NCBI GenBank assembly: GCA_963827475.1 | Contig: CAWHAZ010000003.1 | Span: 1 to 64,000 of the forward strand | From: an uncultured Chloroflexia bacterium | GTDB taxonomy: Bacteria > Chloroflexota > Limnocylindria > QHBO01 | Length of the DNA stretch: 64,000 nt | Direction of reading: 5' to 3' | Shown here: in pieces, positions 1,374-16,866 of the stretch | Numbering within the stretch: position 1 is the stretch's first letter | Layout: each line of letters opens with the position of its first letter | The notes under the pieces: model-generated | Seen by the model: only the letters and a program-made list of their open reading frames with translations | Database searches by the model: none | What the model was told of the DNA's origin: nothing | Made by a program: the position numbers and the translations under genes

Positions 1374-2291
1374 TCAGCCGGCAGTCGTGGCGCCGGCCCT
1401 GGGGCCCTTGGGCCGCCGCGAGCCGGGGCGACGACGCGGATAGAGGTGGTCGATTCCCGGCGTGCGGAGGCTCACCTTCGCCACCGGCGCCGTCTGGCGC
1501 TTGAACTCGTTGCGGGCCACGCGCTCGACGACCCACCGCACGAGCGACTCCGACAGCCCGGCCCGGACGCATCGGTCCACCGACCAGCGCCGGTCGACCA
1601 CGGCGTACAGGATCCGATCCAGGTCGTCGTAGGTGGCGCCCAGCTCGTCCTCATCGGTCTGTCCCGGCCACAGGTCGGCGGATGGTGGCTTGGCGACGAT
1701 CTCCGGTGGCACGCCCAGCTCGGTGGCCACCGCGCGCAGCTGGCTCTTGTACAGGTCACCGATCGGCTGCAGCGCCGCGGCCATGTCGCCGTGGAGCGTC
1801 CCGTAGCCGAGCAGCGCCTCGGTCTTGTTCGAGGTCCCGCAGACCAGGGCGTCGAAGGCCGCCGAGCGGTCGTACAGGACGATCATCCGCAGCCGGGCCA
1901 GGACGTTGCCGCGCCGGATGCGCAGCGCGGGCTCGTCGCCGTGGCCGACGACGGTCAGCATCGGCTCGGCCATGGCCGTGATGTCGATCCGCTGCGAGTC
2001 GCAGCCGAGGGCCTCGACCACCCGGAGGGCATCGGTCTCCGACGACGGATCCGATTGGCGGAACGGCATCCGCACCGCCAGCACGTTCTCCGCCCCCACC
2101 ACCCGAGCGGCCAGGAAGGCGACGGTCGCGCTGTCGACCCCGCCGGAGAGGCCCACCACCAGCCGGTCGAAGCCGGTCTGGTCCAGCTGGGCGCGGAGGA
2201 AGCCGGTGATGACCGCCACGACCTGGTCGGCCTGGACCTGCGGCAGCGGCGCAGCCTCGGTCGCGGCAGGACTCGTCGATCCGGCGCTCAT
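1374..2291 (-). CDS. nadE: NAD+ synthetase (synthetase domain only)
   Basis: GLSGGVDS, GNVLARLRM, GTSNKTE, GYGTLHGD, DLYKSQ, KPPSADLWPGQTDE motifs. ATG at 2291 overlaps the upstream stop (ATGA). Confidence 0.93.
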   Translation of the reverse strand: MSAGSTSPAATEAAPLPQVQADQVVAVITGFLRAQLDQTGFDRLVVGLSGGVDSATVAFLAARVVGAENVLAVRMPFRQSDPSSETDALRVVEALGCDSQRIDITAMAEPMLTVVGHGDEPALRIRRGNVLARLRMIVLYDRSAAFDALVCGTSNKTEALLGYGTLHGDMAAALQPIGDLYKSQLRAVATELGVPPEIVAKPPSADLWPGQTDEDELGATYDDLDRILYAVVDRRWSVDRCVRAGLSESLVRWVVERVARNEFKRQTAPVAKVSLRTPGIDHLYPRRRPGSRRPKGPRAGATTAG

Positions 2292-3190
2292 CGGTCCCCC
2301 GCCGCTTCCTCGGCCGGTTCGTCCGCCGCCTCCAGCCCCGCGCGCTCGGCGATGATCCGGTCCAGCTCGCGGCGGGTGAGGTCCAGCCGCTCGTCGGCCA
2401 GGATGGGGAGCTGGTAGCGCTGCATCCGCAGGTCGTCGGTGTCGAGACTGCCGACGACGAGCGCTTCTTCGTACAGCGGCGCCTCCGCCACGACCGCCCC
2501 GTTGGCGCCGATCAGCCGCGAGCCACCCCAGAAGGTGAGCCCCTCCTCGTTGCCGACCCGGTTGCAGAACGCGACCGCCACCGTCCCCAGCAGGGCGTAC
2601 GTCTCCTGCATCTTGTGCCACCCCTCGATCGCCGCCAGGCCGGCGTCGGAGCCGGGCGCTCGGGCTGGGCCGGCGGCGAGGTTGACGAGCAGCGAGGCCC
2701 CGTCATGGGCCTGGATCATCGGCACCGAGGGGTGCCAGAAGTCCTCGCAGATGCTCAGGCCGATCCGTCCCAGCGGCTCCCCCACCGCCGTCGTCCGGAT
2801 CCGGTCGCCTGCTCGGGTGAAGCGCCCCTCGTCGAACATGCCGTAGGTCGGCAGGTAGACCTTGCGGTGGTGGCCGAGGACCTCGCCGTCGCGGAGGAGG
2901 ACGGCGCTGTTGGTGTACCGATGGTCATCGGTCTCCTCGACGAACCCGATCGCGACCGCGGTCCCCGGCGCGGTGCGGGACAGATCCGCCAGCCGGGGAT
3001 CGGTCACCGGCATGGCGACCTCGGGCACGAGGTCGCTGAGCAGGTAGCCGCTCAGCGCCAGCTCGGGGAAGACGACGAGATGCGCGCCTTCGGCTGCCGC
3101 CGCGCCGATCCGGTCGGCGGCCAGCGCGAGGTTCGCCTCCACGTCCCCCAGGTGGGGCGCGACCTGGGCGAGTGCGACGCGGACCTCCAC
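2288..3190 (-). CDS. nitrilase-family carbon-nitrogen hydrolase, probable glutaminase subunit of NAD synthetase
   Basis: Glu-Lys-Cys triad in FPEL, HRKVYLPTYGMFDE and ICEDFW; translationally coupled to nadE. Confidence 0.88.
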   Translation of the reverse strand: MEVRVALAQVAPHLGDVEANLALAADRIGAAAAEGAHLVVFPELALSGYLLSDLVPEVAMPVTDPRLADLSRTAPGTAVAIGFVEETDDHRYTNSAVLLRDGEVLGHHRKVYLPTYGMFDEGRFTRAGDRIRTTAVGEPLGRIGLSICEDFWHPSVPMIQAHDGASLLVNLAAGPARAPGSDAGLAAIEGWHKMQETYALLGTVAVAFCNRVGNEEGLTFWGGSRLIGANGAVVAEAPLYEEALVVGSLDTDDLRMQRYQLPILADERLDLTRRELDRIIAERAGLEAADEPAEEAAGDR

Positions 3191-3200
3191 GCCGCGAAGC

Positions 3201-4340
3201 CTAGCCGACCGCTGCCTCGGTCGGGGTCGGGGGCGCGGGCGTCTCGGCCTCGTCGACTGCCTCGGCCGACTCCAGGCCCGAGCTCCCGGCGGCCGCGGCG
3301 GCGATCCGCCGCTGGCGTTTGGCCGGCTCGAGCAGGTCCTCCGCGAAATGGCACGCGACCTCGTGGCCCCCGCCGACGGTCCGCAGCTCCGGTCGCTCGG
3401 TCGCGCAGCGCTCGGGATTGCCGAGCTGGGTCCGCAGCCAGCAGCGGGTGTGGAACCGGCATCCCGATGGCGGGTTCACCGGGGAGGGGACGTCGCCGCG
3501 GAGGATGATCCGCCGCCGTTGCGCCCGCTCCGCGGGCTTGGCCACGGGGACCGCCGACAGGAGGGCGATGGTGTACGGGTGGACCGGGAGCCGGTAGATC
3601 TCCGCCGAGCCGGCAACCTCGACCAGGGCGCCGAGGTACATGACCGCCACCCGGTCGCTGATGTGCTCGACCACGCCCATGTTGTGGGCGATGAACAGGT
3701 AGGTCAGGCCCAGCCGGCGCTGGAGATCGCGGAGGAGGTTCAGGACCTGGGCCTGGATGCTGACGTCGAGGGCACTGACCGGCTCGTCGCACACGAGCAG
3801 GTCCGGCTCGAGGACGAGGGCGCGCGCGATCCCGATCCGCTGCCGCTGGCCGCCGGAGAACTCGTGCGGATAGCGCCGGGCGTGGTAGGGCGCGAGCCCG
3901 ACGAGGTCCATCATCTTGGCCACCCGGTCCGCGCGCTCCTGCGGCGTGCCGATGCCGTGGATGCGGAGCCCCTCCCCGATGGCCGCGGCGATCGGCGCCC
4001 GCGGGTCCAGGGACGCGTACGGGTCCTGGAAGACGATCTGCATCCGCCGCCGGTAGCGCTTCAGCTCCGCGCCCTTGACGTGGGTGATGTCCTCCCCGTC
4101 GAACACGATCCGGCCCCCGGTCGGATCGATCAGGCGGAGGAGGGTCCGTCCCACCGTCGTCTTGCCGCATCCCGACTCCCCGACGAGGCCCAGCGTCTCG
4201 CCCCGGCGGATCTCGAAGCTGACGTCGTCGACGGCCTTCACCTCGCCGATCTGGCGCTGGAGGAGGCCGGCCCGCAGTGGGAAGAACTCGGAGAGGTTCT
4301 CGACCTGGACCAGGGGCCCGTTCGAAATCGTCCCTGTCAC
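3201..4340 (-). CDS. peptide ABC transporter ATP-binding protein (OppF/DppF-like), operon 1
   Basis: [22 protein letters not shown]-terminal [10 protein letters not shown]...ACH. Confidence 0.95.
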
Positions 4341-5425
4341 TGCACCCGGGCTCCCGCAATCGGGGTCCCATCGGTCTCGTGGTAGATCCAGCAGCGGACG
4401 TCGTGGCCGATCGCCTGGCCAGCGGATTCGCCCACCGAGCGGAGCTCGGGATGATCGGTCGTGCAGTGCGGTACGTCCTGGGCCACCCGTGGCACGCAGC
4501 GCGGGGCGAAGCGACAGGCCGCTGGCAGGTCGATGAGGTTCGGCACGGAGCCGGGGATGGTCGTCAGCTCCGCCTGGACCTGGCCGAGGGTCGGGACCGA
4601 GCCGATCAGGCCCTGGGTGTACGGGTGCTTGGGATCGGCGAACAGGGTGGTCGTGTCCGACTGCTCGACGATCTCCCCGGCGTACATGACCGCCACCCGG
4701 TCACACATCTCGGCCACCACCCCGAGGTCGTGGGTGATGAGCACGATCGCCGTCCCGGTGTCCGCCTGGAGGGCGCGCATGAGATCGAGGATCTGGGCCT
4801 GGATGGTCACGTCCAGGGCGGTGGTCGGCTCGTCCGCGATGAGCAGCTCCGGCTCGCAGGCGAGGGCCATGGCGATCATCACCCGCTGGGCCATGCCGCC
4901 CGACAGGGAGTGGGGATACGCCTCCAGCCGCCGCTCGGGATCGGGGATGCCCACCATCCGCAGCAGCTCGGCCGCGCGGGCGCGCGCGGTCCGCTTCTTC
5001 ATCCCCTTGTGGATCTCGAGCACCTCGCTGATCTGCCGCCCGACGTCATAGACCGGGTTCAGGCTGCTCTGCGGCTGCTGGAAGATCATGCTGATCCGCT
5101 CCCCGCGCAGCTTCCGCAGGCGCTCCGAGCTGAGCGTCAGCAGGTCGACGTCATCGAACAGGATCTGCCCGCCCTCGACGCGACCTGGCGGCGCGACCAG
5201 GCCCAGGATGGACAGGGCGCTGACCGTCTTTCCACAGCCGGACTCCCCGACCAGTCCGAGGATCTCGCCCCGGTCGACGTGGAAGTCGATGCCGCTCACC
5301 GCGCGGACGACCCCGTCGCGGGTGTGGAACGAGGTCACCAGGCCGCGGACGTCGAGCAGCCGCTGCCCGCGCGAACCGACGCGGCGGGGGATCTCGGAGA
5401 TCTCGGCGATGCCGCCGCTGGTCAC
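4337..5425 (-). CDS. peptide ABC transporter ATP-binding protein (OppD/DppD-like), operon 1
   Basis: [41 protein letters not shown]. Confidence 0.95.
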
Positions 5426-6417
5426 CGGTTCAGCCGTGGGTCGAGCGCGTCACGGAGCCCATCTCCGAACAGGTTGAATCCCAGCACGCTGATCGTGAGC
5501 GCGATGCCGGGCGCGAGGATGAGCCACGGAGCGTTGAACAGCTGGTTGCGGTCGAGGGCGATCATCGATCCCCACTCCGCCAGCGGGGGCTGGGCGCCGA
5601 GCCCGAGGAACGACAGCGCGGCGACCTCCAGGATGGCGCCGGCCACGCCGAGCGTGCCGGCCACGATGATCGGGGTCAGCGAGTTGGGGACGACCCTTCG
5701 GAACAGCACGCCGCGTCCCGACTCCCCGAGGGCCCGCGAGGCGGTGACGAAGTCGCGCTCGCGGACGGACAGGACCGATGCGCGCATGACACGGGCATAG
5801 ACCGGGATGGCCACGATCCCGATCGCGAGCTGTGCGTTGAGCAACCCCGGCCCGAGCACGGTGACGATGGCGATGGCCAGGACCAGGGCCGGGAAGACGA
5901 GGAACACGTCCATGATCCGCATCAGGACGTTGTCCGCGCGGCCCCCGCCGAAGGCCGCCAGGGCGCCGATGGTCGAACCGATGGCGATGGCGAAGCCCAC
6001 GGTCAGGACGCCGACGAACAGGGAAACGCGGGCCCCGTACACCACCCGGCTGAACACGTCCCGGCCGTTCCGGTCGAGCCCGAAGTAGTGCTCGGGCCGG
6101 TCCTCCGGACATCCGAGGAGGTGGATGCACGGGGCATACTCGCCGTCGGCCTGGGACAGCCCCTCCTCGATCCCGACCGCCAGATCCGGATCGTGGGTCG
6201 CGATCAGCGGCGCGAACAGCGCCGTGGTGAACAGGAAAACCAGCAGCACGAGCCCAACCTGCGCCGACCGCTGGCGGAGGATGCTGCCGGCGGTGTCGCG
6301 CCACAGGTTGCCGGGCCGTGCGGCCAGACCCTCGACATCGACCGCCGTCATCCCCTCGCCCGCGGTCACGGTCCGTGCCGCGAGCTGGGCGTCGCCGCTG
6401 TCTGGCAGGAATGTCAT
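5422..6417 (-). CDS. peptide ABC transporter permease (OppC/DppC-like), operon 1
   Basis: GLDRNGRDVFSRVVYGARVSL, EAA-like DFVTASRALG, C-terminal FNLFGDGLRDALDP. Confidence 0.95.
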   Translation of the reverse strand: MTFLPDSGDAQLAARTVTAGEGMTAVDVEGLAARPGNLWRDTAGSILRQRSAQVGLVLLVFLFTTALFAPLIATHDPDLAVGIEEGLSQADGEYAPCIHLLGCPEDRPEHYFGLDRNGRDVFSRVVYGARVSLFVGVLTVGFAIAIGSTIGALAAFGGGRADNVLMRIMDVFLVFPALVLAIAIVTVLGPGLLNAQLAIGIVAIPVYARVMRASVLSVRERDFVTASRALGESGRGVLFRRVVPNSLTPIIVAGTLGVAGAILEVAALSFLGLGAQPPLAEWGSMIALDRNQLFNAPWLILAPGIALTISVLGFNLFGDGLRDALDPRLNR

Positions 6418-7490
6418 TTGAGCCGGATCCGCGGGTCGAGGAACGCGTACGACACGTCCACGACCAGGTTCACGGTGAGGTACACGATGGCCGTGATCAG
6501 GGTCACCGCCTGGATGACCGGGAAGTCGCGGCCGGTGATCGAGTCGGTGATCGTCTTCCCCAGCCCGGTCAGCCCGAAGATCGTCTCGGTCAGGACCGCC
6601 CCGCTGAGCAGGGCGCCCAGGGTCAGCCCGATGACGGTGACGACCGGCAGGATGGCGTTCCGCAGCCCATGGCTGAGGACCACCCGCCGCTCGATGACCC
6701 CTTTGGCCCGGGCCGTGCGGATGTAGTCCTGGCCGAGGACCTCGAGCAGGCTGGAGCGGGTCATCCGGCCGATGAGGGCCAGCGGGATGGTGGCCAGCGC
6801 GATCGCCGGCAGGATGAGGTGGACGACCGCATCACCGAAGACCGCCCACTGGCCGCTGATCAGGCTGCCGACGACGTACATGTTGCCGACGAAGTCGATC
6901 AGGACCCGCAACGGACCGTCGAGGTCCTGCACGCCCCATGCCTCGGCCAGCGGGATGATGATCACCCCCGGCGACAGGCGTCCATTGGGGGGCAGGGCGA
7001 ACGGCGTGTCCTTCAGGACGACGGCGAAGATGAAGATCAGGATCAGGCCGAGGACGAACACCGGGATCGACACGCCGAAGTTGGCGAACATCATCGTCCC
7101 GACGTCCACCTTCGAGTTGCGCCGCGCGGCCGACGCCACGCCCAGCGTGATGCCCAGGATGGTGGCGATGCCCAGGGCCAGGATCGTGAGCTCGATCGTC
7201 ACCGGCATCCGCTCGATGAGCATCTCCGAGATCGGGCGGCCGTAGGCGATCGAGGTCCCGAGGTCGCCGGACAGCAGGTCCTGGACGTAGATCACGAACT
7301 GGACCGGGATCGGCTCGTCCAGCCCGAACCGCTCGTTGAACGCCGCGCACGCCTCCTGCGTCGCTCGCGGGCCGAGGGCGAGGAAGCACGGGTCGCCGGG
7401 CAGGACGCGGGCGAGGGTGAAGACGACGACGATGACGCCGATGAGCACCGGGATGGAGAGCAGCACACGACGGGCGATGAACTGGAACAT
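6414..7490 (-). CDS. peptide ABC transporter permease (OppB/DppB-like), operon 1
   Basis: PGDP, GLDEPIPVQF, GDLGTS, DYIRTARAKG, NLVVDVSYAFLDPRIR. Confidence 0.95.
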   Translation of the reverse strand: MFQFIARRVLLSIPVLIGVIVVVFTLARVLPGDPCFLALGPRATQEACAAFNERFGLDEPIPVQFVIYVQDLLSGDLGTSIAYGRPISEMLIERMPVTIELTILALGIATILGITLGVASAARRNSKVDVGTMMFANFGVSIPVFVLGLILIFIFAVVLKDTPFALPPNGRLSPGVIIIPLAEAWGVQDLDGPLRVLIDFVGNMYVVGSLISGQWAVFGDAVVHLILPAIALATIPLALIGRMTRSSLLEVLGQDYIRTARAKGVIERRVVLSHGLRNAILPVVTVIGLTLGALLSGAVLTETIFGLTGLGKTITDSITGRDFPVIQAVTLITAIVYLTVNLVVDVSYAFLDPRIRLK

Positions 7491-7532
7491 TGGCCGCGAG
7501 TGTAGTGCGGAGGCGGGCTGACGGGAATATGA

Positions 7533-7560
7533 ACGGGCGCCACCCGAAGGTGGCGCCCGT
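7533..7560 (-). terminator. 12-bp GC stem closed by a C(UUCG)G tetraloop between the binding-protein gene and oppB; terminator or mRNA-stabilising hairpin
   Basis: Minus-strand ACGGGCGCCACC-TTCG-GGTGGCGCCCGT followed by TCATATT; a second hairpin lies at 7573-7592. Confidence 0.65.
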
Positions 7561-7606
7561 CGTGTGGTCCGCGGGCGGGCAGATGCCCGCCCATCGGTCT
7601 ATTCGG

Positions 7607-9295
7607 TTACTCCTCCGGCGGCGGAACGTTCAGGAAGGTTCCGAAGAACCCGCCGAAGTACTCGAACGAGCCGGTCCGCCCGATGTGCAGCGGATGTGCG
7701 ACATCCCACTGCAGCGCGAACGACAGGAGCACGTCACCGGCATCCAGTGTCGCGCCGTCGTGGAACGTCGCGTCACGCAGGGTGCAGGTGAACTCGGTCG
7801 CGTCCTCGTTGCCGACGCACTCCTCGGCGAGGGCCGGAATCGCAACCGTCCCTCCCGTCTCGTACGCGTACAGCGCCTCGGTGACCTGCTCGCAGACCCG
7901 GAGGGTCTCGCCATCGGTCTCGTCAGCGCAGTACAGCGCGATCGGCTCGGCGTTCTGCATCCAGACCATCTGGTTGTCGGCCGGCGTCACCGCGGCGAAC
8001 CACTCGTTGCCGAGCGGCGAGCTGTGGGCGCCTTCCACGTCGGCCAGCCACGCGGTGGCGGAAGCCCCGTGCGCGACCGGCACCATCGGGACGGTCTCCC
8101 GGATGGCGTTGTTGGCCTCTGCGTAGGCAGCGGCGCGGACCTCGTCGTCGAGGTTCGATCCGGCTTCCCCGATGGGATCGCGGACCGACGCATCGACGAC
8201 ACCGAACTGGTGGTTCGCGTCGTTGTCGAAGTGGTAGTTCAGGAAGTTGGACGTATCGGGGTAGTCAGCGCCCCAGCCGAGCAGGTACAGCCCGTTCAGC
8301 GAACCGGCGGTCGCGGCGTCGAGGAACGTCCCCGACTCCATCTCCTCGATCGTGACGTTGATGCCGAGGTTGTCCCGGAGCTGGGCCTGCAGGTCCTGGG
8401 CCACGACGGTCGGGTCGGGCAGGTAGCCACGAACCACGTTGCGGAAGTTCAGGACCGTGTCAAACCCGTTCGGCAGGCCGGCCTCGGCCAGCAGGGCCTG
8501 GGCGGCATCCGGGTCGAACTCGTACCACTCGTCGCCTTCGCAGCCGTGCGTGATTTCACACGGCGTGAAGTGGCTGGCGACGGACGAGTCGTCGGGGTAG
8601 AAGTTGTCGACGATGCGCTGCCGGTCGATGCCCATGGCCAGGGCCTGGCGGACGCGCACGTCATCGAACGGCTCGAAGGTGTTGTTGAACCCGACGTACA
8701 TCGTGTTCAGCGGATCCCGCGGCACGAGTGCCAGGTTCGGGTCGCCGGCGATGGTGGCCATGTCGTTGGGCGCGGGGTTGTCGATGGCGTCGATCTGGCC
8801 CGCCTGGAGCGCGACGAGTCGCGCCGCGGACTCGGTGGTCCACTGGAAGACGAGCTCATCCGCACCGACGTTCTCGCCCCAGTAGTCGGGGTTCTTCTCG
8901 AAGACGAGCTGCGTGCCCCGCTGCCAGTCGAGGAGCCGGTAGGGACCGGTCCCGATCGGGTCGGCGAGGATCCGGTGGTTCGCCATGTTGGCTTCGAGGT
9001 TGGCGGTGTCGTGGATCGCGAACGCAGTGAACGCGATCTTCGCCAGGAACGCCGGGTCCGGGAAGCACAGCGAGAAGACGACGGTATCCGCGGCTTCGGC
9101 GCGAATCTCCGAGAACTCGCCGCCGTAGGCACAGTCAACCGGGCCGTCCGCGGGATACGAGGACGGCGAGAACGGTGCTTCGCTGGCCGGCGCCTCAGAT
9201 GGCGCGGCGCTGCCCGAGGGCTCTTCCGAGCCCGAGGGCGTACACGCCGCCAGCACGAGGCCGACGACGACAAACAGGGGTAGGACTCTACGCAC
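7607..9295 (-). CDS. family-5 peptide ABC substrate-binding lipoprotein (DppA-like), circularly permuted
   Basis: Lipobox LAAC; PIGTGPY, NPDYWG, PFDDVRVRQAL, GWGADYPD. The segment that normally opens these proteins (PALAEE..EDATEFTCTLRD.TFHDG..LDAGDV..SF) is at the C-terminus. Confidence 0.9.
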   Translation of the reverse strand: MRRVLPLFVVVGLVLAACTPSGSEEPSGSAAPSEAPASEAPFSPSSYPADGPVDCAYGGEFSEIRAEAADTVVFSLCFPDPAFLAKIAFTAFAIHDTANLEANMANHRILADPIGTGPYRLLDWQRGTQLVFEKNPDYWGENVGADELVFQWTTESAARLVALQAGQIDAIDNPAPNDMATIAGDPNLALVPRDPLNTMYVGFNNTFEPFDDVRVRQALAMGIDRQRIVDNFYPDDSSVASHFTPCEITHGCEGDEWYEFDPDAAQALLAEAGLPNGFDTVLNFRNVVRGYLPDPTVVAQDLQAQLRDNLGINVTIEEMESGTFLDAATAGSLNGLYLLGWGADYPDTSNFLNYHFDNDANHQFGVVDASVRDPIGEAGSNLDDEVRAAAYAEANNAIRETVPMVPVAHGASATAWLADVEGAHSSPLGNEWFAAVTPADNQMVWMQNAEPIALYCADETDGETLRVCEQVTEALYAYETGGTVAIPALAEECVGNEDATEFTCTLRDATFHDGATLDAGDVLLSFALQWDVAHPLHIGRTGSFEYFGGFFGTFLNVPPPEE

Positions 9296-9422
9296 TTAGG
9301 TGACCCTCCGCTTCCTTCGATTCTTCCGACAGGAATGGGCGATACGATCCGGCCGGGGGCCGGTGAGGTCGCATCAGCATATCAGCGCCGCCAACGGGCG
9401 GCTATCGGGTGACTGCCCTCCT

Positions 9423-10562
9423 TCACGTGGTGGCGGCGGGCGCGGCTGCGGTTCCGCCGGTGGGTTCAGGGGCTTCGTCGAGGTGCGCGACACCGACATC
9501 GCTGCGCAGGGCGTCCTCGGCGAAGTGACAGGCGGCCTGGTGAGAGGGCTGGATGGTGCGGAGCGGGGGCTCCTCGGTGGTGCACACCTCCGGACGGCCC
9601 AGCCGCTCGTACAGCCAGCACCGGGTGTGGAAGCGGCAACCGGACGGCGGGTTGACCGGCGAGGGGACGTCGCCGGTGAGGATGACCCGCTTCCGCTTGC
9701 GCTCGGTCTTCGGGTCCGGGATGGGCACCGCCGACAGCAGGGCCCGGGTGTACGGGTGGCCCGGGCCCGCGTACAGCAGGTCCGGGGTCCCGACCTCGAC
9801 CAGCTTGCCGAGGTACATGACCCCGACCCGATCGCTGATGTGGCGGACGACCGACAGGTCGTGTGCGATGAACAGGTACGTGAGCCCGAACCGCTCGCGG
9901 AGCTCGACCAGGAGGTTCAGGACCTGGGCCTGGATCGACACGTCGAGGGCGCTGATCGGCTCGTCGCAGACGATGAACTCCGGCTCCACGGCGAGCGCGC
10001 GAGCCACGCCGATGCGCTGCCGCTGGCCGCCGGAGAACTCGTGCGGGTAGCGGTTGCGGTAGTTCGGGTTGAGCCCCACCAGCTGGAGCAGCTCCGCCAC
10101 CCGGTCCTGGCGGGCGGACTTGCTGCCGAGGTTATGGGTCTCCAGCGGCTCGGAGATGATCGAGTTGACCGTCATTCGCGGGTTCAGCGAGGAGTACGGA
10201 TCCTGGAAGATGATCTGCATCCGCCGCCTTGCCAGCCGGAGCTCCTCGCGCGAGAGGCTCATGAGGTCGAGGCCGTCGAACAGGACCTTCCCGCCTGAGA
10301 GCTTTCGGAGGCGGATGAGCGCGCGACCAGTGGTGCTCTTCCCACATCCGGACTCGCCGACCAGGCCGAGGGTCTCCCCGCGCTTGATCTCGAATGAGAT
10401 GTCGTCCACGGCGCGGACATCGCCAGTCCGTCGCTGGAGGAGGCCGGAGAAGATCGGGAAGTAGACCCGGATGTTGTCGGCCTCAACGAGCGGCCCGGTG
10501 CCGTTGCCCGAGGGCTCGACGGCCGTGGCGGTGGCGGGGACCGTCGTGGTCGACTCGGTCAT
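9423..10562 (-). CDS. peptide ABC transporter ATP-binding protein (OppF-like), operon 2
   Basis: [35 protein letters not shown]; ATG 10562 overlaps the upstream stop. Confidence 0.95.
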
Positions 10563-11674
10563 GGGATCCATCCACCCGGCTCGGTGCCGAAGCATCTCGC
10601 CTCGTGGCCCTCACCCGGCCGCGCTGTGAGCTCGGGCTCCTCGGTCCGGCAGCGGTCCTGTGCGTAGCGGCAGCGCGGAGAGAATCGGCACTCGACGGCG
10701 GGGTCGACGAGGTCCGGCGGCAGCCCCTCGATCGTGCGAAGCCGGCTGGCACGCACGTCGGTAATGCGAGGCAGCGAGTCGAGCAGGCCCCAGGCATACG
10801 GGTGGCGCGAGTTCTCGAAGACGTCATCGACGATCCCGGTCTCCACGATCCGGCCGGCGTACATGACGTTGACGCGGCGGCACATGCCGGCCGCGATGCC
10901 GAGGTCGTGGGTGATCAGGATGACCGCGGTCCCGAACTCCTCCGACAGGGAGCGGATGAGGTCGAGGATCTGGGCCTGGATGGTGACGTCGAGAGCGGTG
11001 GTCGGCTCGTCGGCCAGCAGCAGCATCGGGTCGCAGGCGAGCGCGATCGCGATCATCACCCGCTGGCGCATGCCACCGGAGAACTGGTGCGGGTAGTCCC
11101 CCATCCGGTCGCGTGCCCGGGGAATGCCGACCTTGGACAGCAGCTCCACCGCGCGATCCCCGGCCGCGTTGCGCGACAGGCCGAGGTGGGTGCGTGCGGA
11201 CTCGGAAATCTGGTAGCCAACCGGCAACGTCGGGTTCAGGCTGGTCATCGGGTCCTGGAAGATGAAGCCGATCTTCCGACCCCGCAGCCGGCGCATCTCG
11301 GACCGCGACAGCTTCAGGATGTCGATCCCGTCGAAGATGATCTGGCCTTCGGTGATCTGGCCCGGCGGATCGGGGACGAGGCGGACGAGCGACAACGCGG
11401 TGACGCTCTTGCCGCAGCCGGACTCGCCCACCAACCCGAGCGTCTCCCCGTAGTCGACGTCGAAGCTCACCTCGTCGACGGCGTGGACCACCCCGTCGCG
11501 GGTGAAGAACTGGGTCGAGAGGTTCCGGACCTCGAGCAGCTTGCGCGCATGGCGGCTGCGATCGGCCAGCTGCTCGGCGAGCCGACGTCCCTCCTCGGTC
11601 TCGATCTCGATCGAGTCGGGAAGGTCGCTGACCTCTGCGCCGGCGGGCGGGGTCTCGGGGTCGCTGACCGCCAA
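10559..11674 (-). CDS. peptide ABC transporter ATP-binding protein (OppD-like), operon 2
   Basis: [35 protein letters not shown]. Confidence 0.95.
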
Positions 11675-11675
11675 C

Positions 11676-12641
11676 CTACTGCTTCCCCTTCAACTTGGGG
11701 TCGAGCGCGTCGCGCAGGCCGTCGCCAAGGAAGGTGAAGCTGATGAGGGCCACCGCGATGGCGAGGGCCGGATAGAGGACCAGGTGCGGGAACGATCGAA
11801 TGTAGACCTGGCCGTCGGCCACCAGGCTGCCCCAGCTGGCGCGGGGGTCCTGGACGCCGATCCCGATGAAGGCGAGGGTCGCCTCCGCCAGGATGGCGGC
11901 CGGGATGCCGAGGGTGACGGCCACGATGATCGGCCCGGTCGCGTTCGGCAGCAGGTGCTTGTTCACGATCTTGCGGTCGGACACGCCGATGGCCTGCGCC
12001 GCCTCCACGAACTCCTGCTCCTTCAGGCTCAGCAGCTGGCCGCGGACGAGCCGGGCCATCGTCACCCACGAGGTCAGCCCGATCGCGACGAAGACGAGCA
12101 ACAGCCCATCCATGGCCTGGCCGAAGAACGTCTCGCGGAAGGCGACGCCCAGCAGGATGATGAACAGCAGGTCGGGGTAGGCGTAGACGATGTCCGTGAT
12201 CCGCATCAGGAAGTTGTCCAGCTTGCCGCCGAACCAGGCCGCCATGGCACCGACCGGGATCCCGATGATGATCACGACCGCCTGGGCGATGAGGGCGACC
12301 ATCATGCTAATCCGCGCCCCGTCCATGAGGCGGCTCAACAGGTCGCGACCCAGGTTGTCGGTGCCGAGGTAGTGGACGTGGTCGACGCCCTGGATCTGCT
12401 GCATCGGCACCAACGGGCGGTTGCCGTTGGCGATGATCTCCTGCAGGTGCTGCTCGTAGTACGGCCACGGCGCAAGCTGCGGCCCAAAGGCCGCGATGAA
12501 CAGCAGGAACAGGACGATGATCCCGCCCACGATGGCGAGCCGGTTGCGGAGGAGACGGCGGAAGGCGTCGGTCCACAGGCCGGTGCTCTTCCGGCGTTCG
12601 AGCGGGAGGCCGACCTCGATGGCGCCGGTCTGCTCGGTCAT
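11676..12641 (-). CDS. peptide ABC transporter permease (OppC-like), operon 2
   Basis: LGTDNLGRDLLSR, EFVEAAQAIG, FLGDGLRDALDP. Confidence 0.95.
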   Translation of the reverse strand: MTEQTGAIEVGLPLERRKSTGLWTDAFRRLLRNRLAIVGGIIVLFLLFIAAFGPQLAPWPYYEQHLQEIIANGNRPLVPMQQIQGVDHVHYLGTDNLGRDLLSRLMDGARISMMVALIAQAVVIIIGIPVGAMAAWFGGKLDNFLMRITDIVYAYPDLLFIILLGVAFRETFFGQAMDGLLLVFVAIGLTSWVTMARLVRGQLLSLKEQEFVEAAQAIGVSDRKIVNKHLLPNATGPIIVAVTLGIPAAILAEATLAFIGIGVQDPRASWGSLVADGQVYIRSFPHLVLYPALAIAVALISFTFLGDGLRDALDPKLKGKQ

Positions 12642-12648
12642 GGAGCTC

Positions 12649-13614
12649 CTAGCTGTAGCGGATGCGCGGGTCGATGTAGGCGTACAGGACGTCGACCACC
12701 AGGTTCAGCATGACGATGACCACGGCGTAGAACATGGTCATGGCCATGATCATGCTGTAGTCGCGGTAGCTGATGCTGGTGACGTACGAGCGACCGATAC
12801 CCGGGACGCTGAAGATGTACTCGATCACGAACGACCCGGTGATCAGGAAGGCCAGGATCGGTCCGAGGATGGTCACCACCGGGATCAGCGCGTTGCGGAT
12901 CATGTGCACGATGACCACGGTCCGCCGACCCAACCCCTTGCTGTGCGCGGTGCGCACGTAGTCGCGGCGGGTGACCTCCAGCATCGAGGCCCGCGTATAG
13001 CGCGCGATCTGGGCGATGGGGTACAGCGAGAGCGCGATGATGGGCAGGACCCAGGCGGTCGGATCCGACTCCCATTCCAGCGCGGTGATCGGGAACCAGC
13101 CCAGCATCACGCCGAACACGACGATGAGCAGGATCGACGACACGAACGTCGGCGTCGAGATGCCGAGAACCGAGACGAAGGTGGCCGAGTAGTCGGGCGC
13201 CTTGTTATGGCCCAGGGCGGCGACGATGCCGAGCGGGAGGCCAATGGCGACCGATAAGAGGAACGCCATCGCGCCAAGCTGGACGGTGATCAGGATCCCG
13301 TCCGCGATGATGTCGTTCACCGACCGGTCGGTGTACTTGTAGGACGGTCCCAGGTCGCCGGTCAGCATCCCTCCGCAACAGCTCACGGCGCCGTCGGAGA
13401 TGACCAGCGGGCCAACCCAGTTCAGGTACTGGACGACGATGGGCTCGTCGAGCCCGTACTTGTCGTTCAGCCGGTCGATGGTGGACTGCGGGAGCGGCCG
13501 CTCGCGCGACCACGGGCCACCGGGGACGGCGTGCATGAGGACGAAGGTGATGACCGACACGAAGAAGAGGACCGGGATGATCCACAGGACCCGCCGAACG
13601 ATATAGGTCAGCAC
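12649..13614 (-). CDS. peptide ABC transporter permease (OppB-like), operon 2
   Basis: PGGPW, YGLDEP, GDLGPSY, DYVRTAHSKG, VDVLYAYIDPRIRY. Confidence 0.95.
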   Translation of the reverse strand: MLTYIVRRVLWIIPVLFFVSVITFVLMHAVPGGPWSRERPLPQSTIDRLNDKYGLDEPIVVQYLNWVGPLVISDGAVSCCGGMLTGDLGPSYKYTDRSVNDIIADGILITVQLGAMAFLLSVAIGLPLGIVAALGHNKAPDYSATFVSVLGISTPTFVSSILLIVVFGVMLGWFPITALEWESDPTAWVLPIIALSLYPIAQIARYTRASMLEVTRRDYVRTAHSKGLGRRTVVIVHMIRNALIPVVTILGPILAFLITGSFVIEYIFSVPGIGRSYVTSISYRDYSMIMAMTMFYAVVIVMLNLVVDVLYAYIDPRIRYS

Positions 13615-13692
13615 GTCTGCCTCTCCATGTCATCTGCCGTCGTGGTGTCGACGGCCGTGGCGTCCGAAGAATAATCCTCGGCCGCCGTGGCC

Positions 13693-13722
13693 GTCGGGCG
13701 GGCCGTTCCCGGCCCGCCCGAC
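13693..13722. terminator. 13-bp perfect hairpin downstream of oppA (operon 2)
   Basis: GTCGGGCGGGCCG-TTCC-CGGCCCGCCCGAC; no adjacent U-tract, so possibly a stabilising stem rather than an intrinsic terminator. Confidence 0.55.
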
Positions 13723-13750
13723 AGTTGTTACGCCTTACTGGTGCGGAACC

Positions 13751-15439
13751 CTACTCCTCGTGGGCGGCGATCGTCACCCACGGATAGAAGTGTGCGCCCG
13801 CATCCGGGTCAAGCGGAGTCACGGTCAGGCCCACGACGTACGGCTTGACGAGCGTGAAGCGCCCGCCAAACCGGAACGGCATCAGCGGGTTGTCCGCCAT
13901 CTGCATTTCCTGGACCTGGTTGTACAGGGCGACCTGAGCGTCAGGATCCGCCTCGACCGCCGCTTCCGCCATCAGCTCGTCGGCCGCCTCGTTGCAGTAC
14001 CCAACGTTGTTGTTGGGGCTCGTGCAGCCGAGGAGGTCGAAGAGGAAGTTGTGCGGATGCGGGAAGTCCGCGATCCACCCGAGTCGGAAGATGTCGAACG
14101 GATCGCTCGACAGACGGTCGAGATACGTTCCGAACTCCATGCCCACCGGCTCCAGCGAGAACTCGTCGCCGAACGCCGTCCGCCACTGCTCCGTGAGGTA
14201 CGCAACGCGGTCCGCGTGGGTACCTTCGGTGTTGTAGCCGATCTGGAGATGAAGATCAGCGGCACTCGCCAGACCGAGCTCTTCCAGGGCGGCATTGAAG
14301 TCCGCCGTGGCCTGCTCGACGTCGTACGGAACGAAGACGGTGTCCTGATTCCCCGGCATGCCGGGCGGTACCAGGCTGTTGGCCACGCTGCCGACGCCGC
14401 CGTACGGGACGGCGATCATGGTCTCCTTGTCAACAGCCTCGTGGAACGCCTTCCGCAGGAGCGGAGAGCGCGCGAACGGCGAATTCGGATCGATCAGGTC
14501 GAAGCCGTAATACTCGACGTTCAGGGTGTTGCCACGGAGGATCTCCTGGCTCACCACCGGGTCTTCCTCGAGGCGCGGAATCTCAGCCGGCGGAGGCGTG
14601 GCGATATCCAGATCGCCGGCCTCGTAGGCCGCGAGCTCCACCGAGGAGTCGGCAATGACCGAGTACTCGATGCGCTCAAGGGTGACCGGCTCGCCGCCCC
14701 AGCCCGGGTTGGGCACAACGTGAACGGACGCGCCGTGGTTCCACTCTTCCAGCATCATCGGACCGGAGGCGATGTAGCCCTCGGCCTCGGTGAAGGTCGT
14801 TGGTTCGCCAAACGGCGCCATATCCTCGCGGATCGGGACGGTCAGCCACATGGTGGTCACGTAGGTGAACCAGGTGGCCGGCGCGCCCAGGGTGACCACG
14901 AAGGTCGAGTCATCCGGAGCGGCGACGCCGAACTCTTCGAGCATGGCGTCGATGTCATCTGTCTCCGGGTCGGCGCCGCGAATTTCGGCCCCGTTGGCGA
15001 CCGTGTCGAGCACGTAGGAGTACTCAGACGCGGTCCGCGGGTCGATCAGGCGCTTCCAGCCGTAGACGAAGTCGCCGGCCACGATGGGCTCGCCGTCCGA
15101 ATACGAAAAGCCTTCGCGCAAGGTATACGTCAGGGTCATGCCGTCGGCACTGATCTCGGGAAGCTCGGCAAGGCCGGGCGCGAGACCGAGGTCCGCATCG
15201 AAGTACAGAAGCGGATGGGTGATCTGACGAAGAACGTTGACCGACTCGCTGTCGGTTGCGATGTTCGGGTCGAGCGACGGAGGCTCCGTCCCGAGAACTA
15301 CTCGCAGAACCTGCTCAGCCGCCGGCGCCTCACTGGCGGGGGCCTCGCTTCCGCTCGGGGATTCCGACGCGGAGGGCTGGCACGCTGCCAGCAATAGCAT
15401 CAGCACCAGGCCGGTGCCGACTGCCCTTCTAGTCCACAT
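13751..15439 (-). CDS. oligopeptide ABC substrate-binding lipoprotein (OppA-like), canonical domain order
   Basis: Lipobox LAAC; EPPSLDP, PGLAE, SDGEPIVAGDFVYGWKRLIDP, LGWIADFP. Confidence 0.93.
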   Translation of the reverse strand: MWTRRAVGTGLVLMLLLAACQPSASESPSGSEAPASEAPAAEQVLRVVLGTEPPSLDPNIATDSESVNVLRQITHPLLYFDADLGLAPGLAELPEISADGMTLTYTLREGFSYSDGEPIVAGDFVYGWKRLIDPRTASEYSYVLDTVANGAEIRGADPETDDIDAMLEEFGVAAPDDSTFVVTLGAPATWFTYVTTMWLTVPIREDMAPFGEPTTFTEAEGYIASGPMMLEEWNHGASVHVVPNPGWGGEPVTLERIEYSVIADSSVELAAYEAGDLDIATPPPAEIPRLEEDPVVSQEILRGNTLNVEYYGFDLIDPNSPFARSPLLRKAFHEAVDKETMIAVPYGGVGSVANSLVPPGMPGNQDTVFVPYDVEQATADFNAALEELGLASAADLHLQIGYNTEGTHADRVAYLTEQWRTAFGDEFSLEPVGMEFGTYLDRLSSDPFDIFRLGWIADFPHPHNFLFDLLGCTSPNNNVGYCNEAADELMAEAAVEADPDAQVALYNQVQEMQMADNPLMPFRFGGRFTLVKPYVVGLTVTPLDPDAGAHFYPWVTIAAHEE

Positions 15440-15721: not shown

Positions 15722-16270
15722 CTACCGGCTGTGACCGCCGACGATTCCCGTCGACGGAGCCATCTCCCAGCGGTCGAACGTGGCCACCGCCCCGGTGTGC
15801 GGCGCGGGGACGGTGATGTAGCGGAGCCACCAGCGCGCCTGCTCCCCGTCGGCGACATCCATCGCCTCCACCTCCTCGAGGATGCGCCAGGTCGGCTCGC
15901 GGGCGGCCAGGTCGGGATGGACCGCGAACGGGTTCAGGTTCGGCGCGACGACCAGGGCGAGGACCACGATCGCGGTCGCGCCGACCGGGGCCAGGCGGAG
16001 GACGGGCAGCAGGCGGCCGAGCAGGGTCGGCGGCTCCGGCTCGAGGGCCCGGCGGCGGATCTCGATCCACGCCCCCGGGGACGCGGCGTGGCCATCGAGC
16101 CGTGCGGCGAGGGCCCGCTGCAGCTGGATGACCAGCGCCCGGTCGAGGCCCACCGCTTCCCGGCAGGCCACGCACACCGCGAGGTGCTCGAGGTGGGGCG
16201 CCGAGCGGGCATCGAGGTCGCCGAAGCGGAAGAACTCGATGACCTCCCGGGAAATCCGCTCGCAGCTCAC
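15722..16270 (-). CDS. zinc-binding (ZAS/zf-HC2) transmembrane anti-sigma factor
   Basis: N-terminal MSC...HLAVCVAC (HxxxCxxC), one TM segment, coupled to the sigma gene. Confidence 0.85.
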   Translation of the reverse strand: MSCERISREVIEFFRFGDLDARSAPHLEHLAVCVACREAVGLDRALVIQLQRALAARLDGHAASPGAWIEIRRRALEPEPPTLLGRLLPVLRLAPVGATAIVVLALVVAPNLNPFAVHPDLAAREPTWRILEEVEAMDVADGEQARWWLRYITVPAPHTGAVATFDRWEMAPSTGIVGGHSR

Positions 16271-16866
16271 GGTCCGGTCCTCCGCTCGCTGGCGAGGCGG
16301 CCATGCCCGCGGATCGGGGTGCGGCGGGCGACCGGGAGCAGGACCCGCAGCGCGCGGAGCGCGTAGTGGATTCGCGACTTCATCGTGCCGACCTGGCAGC
16401 CGGCGATCTCGGCGGCTTCCGCCAGGCTGTAGCCGTGGAGGTAGTACAGGATGATCGCGGTCTGCTGCTTCGGCGGGAGCTGGTCGATGCCCTTCTGGAG
16501 GACGTCGACGATCTCCCGTGACTCGACCACCTCGTCGGGTCGGGCCGACAGGTCAGGGGCGAGGTTGCCGATGAGATCGGTCAGCGGCTCGAGCGGCGCA
16601 CGGCGTCGCGAGAGACGGCTGTAGCACAGGTTGGTGCAGACCCGCTGCAGCCAGGGCAGCGGCGAGACATCGGTGCGCAGCCGGGCACGGACGCGGTAGG
16701 CCTTCACGAAGACGTCCTGCAGGATCTCCTCGGCCAGGAACGGGTCCCGGGTGATGGCGAGCGCGGTGAGGTACACGGGGCGCTGGTAGGTCACGAAGAA
16801 CTCCTCGAACGCCTGCAGGTCGCCCGACTGCATGCGCGCGACGAGGCCCGGGATCGCCTCTGTCAC
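16267..16866 (-). CDS. ECF RNA polymerase sigma factor
   Basis: Region 2 (AEEILQDVFVKAY...WLQRVCTNLC) and region 4 (LPPKQQTAIILYYLHGYSLAEAAEIAGCQVGTMKSRIHYA). Confidence 0.92.
   Translation of the reverse strand: MTEAIPGLVARMQSGDLQAFEEFFVTYQRPVYLTALAITRDPFLAEEILQDVFVKAYRVRARLRTDVSPLPWLQRVCTNLCYSRLSRRRAPLEPLTDLIGNLAPDLSARPDEVVESREIVDVLQKGIDQLPPKQQTAIILYYLHGYSLAEAAEIAGCQVGTMKSRIHYALRALRVLLPVARRTPIRGHGRLASERRTGP

Follow-up and report, generated by a model that had tools for sequence, protein, structure and literature searches.

A circularly permuted, DppA-like substrate-binding lipoprotein at the head of a Dpp-type importer operon in an uncultured Chloroflexia bacterium

We analyzed a gene on the minus strand, at positions 7607 to 9295 (stop codon included), of a 64,000-nucleotide (nt) stretch of DNA from an uncultured Chloroflexia bacterium (assembly GCA_963827475.1, contig CAWHAZ010000003.1), hereafter the window. 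The gene encodes a 562-amino-acid (aa), circularly permuted family-5 (DppA-like) substrate-binding lipoprotein, in which the part equivalent to residues 120 to 507 of DppA comes first and the part equivalent to residues 1 to 122 comes last. We consider it very probable (about 0.9) that the cluster-C fold has been truly circularly permuted in this chain, a Dpp/Opp-type receptor, and that the protein works like DppA, the latter because its predicted fold and its two ligand-clamping residues are unchanged.

Chain order and predicted fold

The open reading frame (ORF) at 7607 to 9295 starts with GTG and is uninterrupted over 562 aa. Each block is present once in the chain, so there is no duplication, and on both points the first-pass annotation of the window was right. 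The whole protein matched PF00496 (SBP_bac_5) in two stretches, with 257.7 bits against a cut-off of 32.4 and an E value of 2.4e-76, which places it in the family, and this was the only Pfam family matching at E values up to 1. Aligning the two halves separately to this profile, a check set in advance, gave two matches in swapped order: residues 1 to 439 alone covered profile positions 62 to 366, and residues 440 to 562 alone covered positions 3 to 49 (32.6 bits, E 6.3e-8). With profile positions 62 to 366 preceding 3 to 49, the chain departs from the canonical order of family 5 and cluster C. As judged from these alignments, the family-5 homology stands although collinearity fails.

The same picture emerged from solved proteins. 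In a phmmer search against PDB sequences, residues 62 to 436 aligned to residues 125 to 504 of mature Escherichia coli DppA (1dpe; stretch E 1.2e-39), and residues 475 to 550 aligned to its residues 36 to 118 (stretch E 8.9e-4). Yersinia DppA (5f1q) and GbpA (3m8u) each gave two stretches in this swapped order as well, and on the NCBIfam DppA model residues 62 to 436 fell on positions 153 to 532 and the C-terminal block on positions 32 to 146. The alignments to PDB chains and profiles locate both blocks where the first-pass annotation had put them. In this search no matched solved structure aligned collinearly to the whole protein, and therefore none of them has its chain order; all solved cluster-C structures found in this analysis have the canonical one.

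An AlphaFold2 model of the full-length protein, built with 60 aligned homologues, had a mean predicted local distance difference test score (pLDDT) of 93.4 and a predicted template modeling score of 0.89, and was confident from about residue 41 to 555, junction included. Superposed with VIA-align on 1dpp_A, its residues 57 to 439 matched chain residues 120 to 507 (Z 30.5, root mean square deviation [rmsd] 2.4, 381 residues aligned, about 29% identity). Every row listed for the full-length model by Foldseek or VIA-align was confined to residues 47 to 440, and none of 50 rows reached residues 441 to 555. Both programs are sequential aligners, which cannot display a permutation in one superposition, and because they leave the C-terminal block uncovered, we folded residues 440 to 562 separately with the same homologues (pLDDT 91.5). 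The lone block superposed on residues 1 to 122 of 1dpe (Z 9.3, rmsd 2.5, 114 residues aligned, 31% identity). Each of the 50 rows listed for it was a family-5 protein, and 42 of them matched within the first 170 or so residues; the remaining 8 had a higher rmsd and a chain range across most of the protein.

In these superpositions, DppA residue 507 corresponds to model residue 439 and DppA residue 1 to residue 441, and the new ends lie at about DppA residues 120 to 122, in what we take to be a loop of the extra domain II in DppA domain naming. The predicted model has the two-lobe cluster-C fold and is superposable on solved members. The proposal of the first-pass annotation that the original termini were joined and new ones opened inside the N-terminal lobe is thus borne out by sequence tests and predicted-structure tests, which are independent of each other and agree.

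From its N terminus, the translation, inspected by eye, reads R2-R3, a hydrophobic run, the lipobox L15-A16-A17-C18, and then a Ser/Pro/Ala-rich stretch. The signal peptide and lipobox L-A-A-C (residues 1 to 18) lie at 9242 to 9295, on the minus strand like all the parts described below. By this inspection, the protein has the signal peptide and lipobox Cys of a bacterial lipoprotein. Lipidation is predicted to occur at Cys18, which 54 of 60 aligned homologues share. A flexible Ser/Pro/Ala-rich tether follows (residues 19 to 40; 9176 to 9241), recognized by its composition and by low pLDDT, which is 50 to 58 in the 10-residue blocks spanning residues 11 to 40 of the full-length model. The ordered N-terminal extension (residues 41 to 56; 9128 to 9175), the new N terminus of the fold, has a pLDDT of about 95 and a strand at residues 45 to 47, and carries Cys55 in the motif D-C-x-Y-G-G. 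The first-pass annotation had the mature chain start at about residue 60, which needs correction: by pLDDT, the ordered chain begins at about residues 41 to 45.

Block A (residues 57 to 439, equivalent to DppA 120 to 507; 7979 to 9127), delimited by VIA-align, phmmer, and Pfam, holds R289, Y291, and D344, and presumably comprises the rest of domain II, most of domain I, and all of domain III in the DppA naming. At the junction (residues 436 to 445; 7961 to 7990), placed by the structural alignments, the ancestral C terminus runs straight into the ancestral N terminus. Block B (residues 440 to 555, equivalent to DppA 1 to 122; 7631 to 7978), now C-terminal, was defined by model superposition, Pfam, and NCBIfam, and we assume it to be the first strand of domain I plus the first half of domain II. 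The new C terminus is a short tail (residues 556 to 562, plus the stop codon; 7607 to 7630), in which pLDDT drops to 68 in the final block (residues 561 and 562). It would follow from this topology that the permutation moves the membrane-anchor point, with the tether attached at domain II and no longer at domain I.

Conservation and genomic setting

To describe chain order among relatives, we used a three-block map (A1, A2, and B). All 120 listed homologues, at 58 to 100% identity, had the order A1-A2-B; some of their sources name Chloroflexota or Candidatus Limnocylindria. To extend the range, 1.84 billion representatives of clusters at 50% identity were searched in full with HMMER, and the best 150 were classified. 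Block A preceded block B in 109 of them, down to 31% identity, another 30 were fragments with block A only, and 11 had B before A, 7 of which were plainly canonical by the three-block map, the first at an E value of about 1e-66. Full-length homologues with the same order, which the first-pass annotation had named as a check, therefore exist both among the listed homologues and among these more distant representatives.

A pattern scan of species-representative genomes, built on a 20-sequence alignment, yielded 460 matched stretches, 446 of which were confirmed as relatives. The best 80 relatives, from which the taxonomy was taken, belonged nearly all to Chloroflexota (Limnocylindria, Anaerolineae, Caldilineaceae, Promineifilum, and Amarolinea), and 3 contigs among them were filed under other phyla. 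These three (L009, L024, and L029), at 57 to 74% identity and with the same operon, come from metagenome-assembled genomes labeled Pleomorphomonadaceae, Steroidobacteraceae, and Methylomirabilota; they are more likely to be mis-binned Chloroflexota contigs than cases of transfer. The source genome itself (7 contigs, 1.92 Mb) has one copy of the permuted protein.

Read-level evidence was taken from Logan contigs, mostly 64 to 361 nt long and 90 to 99% alike, 32 of whose 157 pieces were listed. One listed piece properly bridges the junction near nt 7980, as the first-pass annotation had hoped to see: a 178-nt contig from an independent soil run (X7) that spans 7849 to 8026 with 1 mismatch. Read joints with skips of 83 to 895 nt (depth 2 to 12, shorter side 22 to 42 letters) look like relatives or repeats.

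The ligand-contacting residues of the family were located by alignment. R289 and D344 align to R355 and D408 of mature DppA (R383 and D436 of the precursor). According to a study of DppA, these two residues form salt bridges with the carboxyl and amino ends of the dipeptide, and the double mutant loses binding (PMC12136057). R289, Y291, and D344 were kept in all 118 close homologues compared and in 212 to 221 of 245 clade members.

The permuted gene heads an intact minus-strand operon encoding a substrate-binding protein, two permeases, and two ATPases, all with the expected Pfam domains. The DppB/OppB-like permease (6414 to 7490) has PF00528 and PF19300, and the DppC/OppC-like permease (5422 to 6417) has PF00528 and PF12911; the DppD-like (4337 to 5425) and DppF-like (3201 to 4340) ATPases both have PF00005 and PF08352 (oligo_HPY). 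The Opp/Dpp permeases and two oligo_HPY ATPases expected beside a family-5 protein are thus in place. This setting is conserved: among 80 related loci, 74 had at least 1,300 nt downstream, and in 70 of these a DppB homologue started at most 400 nt downstream on the same strand; the complete B-C-D-F set was present in 48 of the 54 loci that had at least 4,600 nt downstream. In the other 4 of the 74 (L046, L055, L056, and L058), the DppB homologue begins 1.1 to 1.4 kb downstream, compared with the usual 100 to 150 nt or so, and an extra gene may have been inserted before it.

On the minus strand the window has two complete Opp/Dpp-type importer operons in head-to-tail arrangement, at 3201 to 9295 and 9423 to 15439, 127 nt apart; the first has the permuted binding protein and the second a canonical one. 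The latter, a family-5 binding protein (OppA) of 562 aa at 13751 to 15439 on the minus strand, was identified with Pfam and NCBIfam. It is alike in family, in its lipoprotein-type N terminus, in length, and in the kind of operon, but differs in its collinear canonical order, and it is 27% identical to the permuted protein over residues 114 to 429. It matched Pfam in one stretch (residues 86 to 475 on profile positions 2 to 366) and the NCBIfam OppA model over residues 17 to 544 (positions 15 to 531), so that the normal order ascribed to it by the first-pass annotation holds.

Besides the lipobox Cys, the protein has eight cysteines, at positions 55, 77, 246, 252, 456, 468, 493, and 504. The first-pass annotation had seen in them four apparent pairs that may be disulfides stabilizing the new termini. 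The count is correct, and over 245 clade members, which are interrelated so that the counts are not independent events, the pairs co-vary. Cys55 and Cys77 were both present in 233 members, both absent in 7, and found singly in 5; the corresponding numbers were 155, 90, and 0 for Cys246 and Cys252, 224, 19, and 2 for Cys456 and Cys468, and 152, 93, and 0 for Cys493 and Cys504. This co-variation supports four putative disulfides. A role in steadying the new termini fits the Cys55-Cys77 pair, which is nearly universal and located at the new terminus, but not the other three, which many members lack and which therefore cannot be needed for the permutation. Cys55 belongs to the ordered N-terminal extension, whereas Cys77 is part of the second strand of block A, and none of the three aligned solved chains of DppA type has a Cys at the Cys77 position. 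The clade-specific, putative Cys55-Cys77 disulfide would probably pin the new N-terminal segment.

Other features of the window were noted around the two operons. Upstream, ORFs at 16267 to 16866 and 15722 to 16270 (together 15722 to 16866, minus strand) resemble, by their translations, an extracytoplasmic function (ECF)-type sigma factor and, after it, an anti-sigma factor that bears a Cys/His motif. Just downstream of the permuted protein's operon, a CN_hydrolase ORF (2288 to 3190) overlaps an NAD synthase ORF (1374 to 2621) on the minus strand; the two may be parts of a single glutamine-dependent NAD synthetase gene that a frameshift, or the ORF calling, has divided. Positions 7400 to 9500 were covered by rhizosphere metatranscriptome contigs from two studies at 90 to 99% likeness, with 30 of 30 bins covered in run X1. 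This coverage hints at expression in soil or rhizosphere, with the caveat that DNA carry-over is possible and coverage does not prove transcription.

Related modules and the origin of the rotation

Some relatives carry the permuted module within larger proteins. We scanned 18 long or multi-stretch representatives against Pfam, and 16 had another domain N-terminal of the permuted module: Pkinase in five (P0135, P0144, P0152, P0153, and P0158), Peripla_BP_6 in four (P0123, P0140, P0161, and P0176), TIR in two (P0128 and P0136), and, as single fusions, SBP_bac_3 (P0131), caspase plus FHA (P0151), a double zinc ribbon (P0155), Big_9, and DUF11. The permuted module was also seen as the second of two fused binding proteins. 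In a scan made with P0153, its relatives were mostly found in Anaerolineae-type Chloroflexota. These architectures suggest that the permuted module also serves as an extracytoplasmic sensor. The other 2 of the 18 were P0126 and a tandem fusion, P0157.

P0157 bears on how the permutation could have arisen. The likely route would be tandem duplication of an ancestral gene, in-frame fusion of the copies, and loss of the outer parts, and the seamless join of the old termini fits such a duplication-fusion-truncation. P0157 (1,202 aa) is a natural tandem fusion of the order B-A-B-A; therefore, fused duplicates of the kind needed by this route do occur. Further natural tandem family-5 fusions were P0253 (2,754 aa, four or more repeats) and P0246 (3,461 aa). 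All three are candidate intermediates of permutation by duplication.

P0126 represents a second rotation. The order A2-B-A1, with a cut near the equivalent of window residue 272, was found in 65 of 119 further listed proteins (P0126, P0272 to P0329, and others). P0126 is closely related to P0330, which has the window order; their identity is 85% across one stretch of 281 residues and 72% across another of 230. Between its B and A1 blocks, P0126 carries the old C-terminal tail and the old N-terminal extension with its D-C-x-Y-G-G motif, connected through a linker of about 17 residues. Former termini retained in this way are the footprint expected of a second duplication-fusion event.

We placed these proteins in a FastTree phylogeny of the re-ordered blocks (116 sequences, 474 columns), made up of all 89 eligible representatives, P0002, and, by id number, every 12th listed homologue and every 5th further protein. 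The P0126 subclade was nested inside the clade of the window protein, with a local-group support of 0.992. On the other hand, P0256 also has the order A2-B-A1 yet groups with a canonical protein, which suggests that its rotation was an independent event. The tree is compatible with a single origin of the clade, which is not secure.

Alternative explanations and significance

Several observations weigh against a DppA-like, truly permuted receptor. On the sequence side, the Pfam score of the lone C-terminal block is barely over the cut-off (32.6 against 32.4 bits), its E values against individual PDB chains, from 8.9e-4 to 0.019, are modest, and just 1 of the 32 listed pieces bridges the junction with at least 31 letters on each side. 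The fold is predicted, neither an experimental structure nor a binding datum was found for any member, and the permutation emerges from two superpositions made one by one and not from a single permutation-aware one. A minority of the wider clade has lost the aligned Arg and Asp, the DppA equivalog score is far below its cut-off, which leaves a dipeptide as a putative ligand, and the 245 sequences behind the cysteine counts are interrelated rather than independent. In the tree, the node that unites all 97 window-order proteins and the 12 nested ones, and that includes no canonical protein, has a support of only 0.174.

Against this background, we weighed four other explanations. A chimeric contig, fused fragments, or a gene-calling error could fake the swapped order, and the source genome, in 7 contigs, estimated to be 90% complete and probably metagenome-assembled, is of a kind in which chimeras are possible. 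The chance of this is negligible, as the same order recurs in all 120 listed homologues from other assemblies and in 109 of the 150 distant representatives, the frame is uninterrupted, the independent soil contig crosses the junction, and the AlphaFold model is confident there; the divergence of the homologues excludes common descent from one assembly error. The first-pass annotation had called misassembly unlikely, and the more than 200 full-length homologues in independent assemblies exclude it. The order could also be real but have another history, in which an N-terminally truncated DppA-like gene gained a 3′ homologous block from another family-5 gene. Such a mosaic would not differ in topology, a single sequence does not reveal the route, a single origin has low basal support, and the authors who described the permuted protein TpMglB-2 raise such a route for it (PMC4990184). 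We regard the mosaic as unlikely: among solved relatives, both blocks are closest to the same DppA/HbpA/GbpA group, at 29% identity for block A and 30 to 31% for block B, the old termini are joined seamlessly, the fused tandem protein P0157 exists, and in the nested second rotation the old termini survive as an internal linker, as expected of duplication and fusion.

The two remaining alternatives accept the permutation and concern function. The fusions of the permuted module to kinase, TIR, caspase, and other domains in 16 of the 18 scanned representatives would fit a protein that is mainly a ligand sensor or signaling receptor; for the window protein this is improbable, since it stands alone as a lipoprotein heading a complete permease/ATPase operon, with the placement of DppB kept in 70 of 74 loci. 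There is a considerable chance, if somewhat short of even, that the topology is as described and the ligand is something other than a dipeptide, such as the glutathione, heme, opines, nickel complexes, or longer peptides bound by solved relatives. Glutathione-binding GbpA (3m8u) and HbpA (3tpa) are among the best solved matches, with scores equal to that of DppA, and the protein scored 189.9 bits on the NCBIfam DppA equivalog NF043070 against a cut-off of 1005, in a test that is biased because a collinear model cannot fully score a rotated chain. The dipeptide-clamping Arg and Asp, kept in 118 of 118 close homologues, speak against a different ligand. The name DppA is not justified. We conclude that the protein is a working receptor of a Dpp-type importer, and that it most likely binds a dipeptide or another very short peptide, although the odds of this against glutathione-like or other ligands are roughly even. 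Anchored by lipid at Cys18 through the tether of about 22 residues, the receptor would close on a short peptide, in all likelihood a dipeptide, and would pass it to the permeases.

Among known systems, the nearest by family are DppA of E. coli and Yersinia, HbpA, and GbpA (1DPP, 1DPE, 5F1Q, 3M8U, and 3TPA; DppABCDF complex, 8Z1Z), which share PF00496, the predicted three-domain fold, and about 29% identity with the window protein. The dipeptide-clamping Arg and Asp of DppA are kept, and the operon partners are of the same type. Unlike DppA, the window protein has a rotated chain and is a lipoprotein, with a tether predicted to enter at domain II, an extra ordered N-terminal segment, and the Cys55-Cys77 pair.

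With the nearest precedent in print, the resemblance lies in the principle and not in the family. According to its published description (PMC4990184), Tp0684 (TpMglB-2) of Treponema pallidum, a cluster-B glucose receptor, is a natural circularly permuted ABC (ATP-binding cassette)-type binding lipoprotein, for which the authors proposed a "Cluster Bc." Its first N-lobe strands have moved to the C terminus with ligand binding and closure retained, and the authors considered the topology a possible adaptation to tethering. It differs from the window protein as a sugar-binding cluster-B protein of the type I fold, in which the permutation adds a fourth hinge crossing and the permuted part is barely alignable to its canonical counterpart (13% identity), whereas the window protein has a seamless join and two blocks that each align clearly to DppA. 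In the full-text literature searched, a scope that leaves out most subscription journals, permutation turned out not to be described for any family-5, OppA, or DppA protein, in line with the first-pass annotation, which knew of no such clade. The sole paper found there that had "circular permut" and OppA together was that on the MALISAM database of structural analogues, and the GisD paper (PMC10355420) does not mention permutation in its text. Permuted binding proteins as such are known; what is new relative to this literature is a permuted binding protein in cluster C, and one that is clade-wide.

Few bacterial receptors have been studied as much as the cluster-C proteins, and collinear profile models under-score rotated members and annotate only part of them. 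In this family, nature offers pairs with and without the permutation, in some cases with identities above 80%, in which the origin and the folding cost of permutation can be studied, and a natural test of whether the tether entry point matters for an anchored receptor docking onto its permease. The new termini also mark a site at which the DppA fold tolerates opening, which is of interest to builders of biosensors. More speculatively, and with the odds in our view against it, the family-5 proteins of Chloroflexota could be a hot spot at which duplication and fusion have produced one permutation after another, with a rotation that is ancient and clade-wide and was repeated at least once within the last 15 to 20% or so of divergence. 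The domain-II tether would then be functionally relevant; it may suit membrane-tethered receptors and may have enabled the C-terminal use of the module as a sensor on Ser/Thr kinase, TIR, and caspase proteins. Should serial rotation and a functional role of the relocated tether prove true, the interest of these receptors would rise further.

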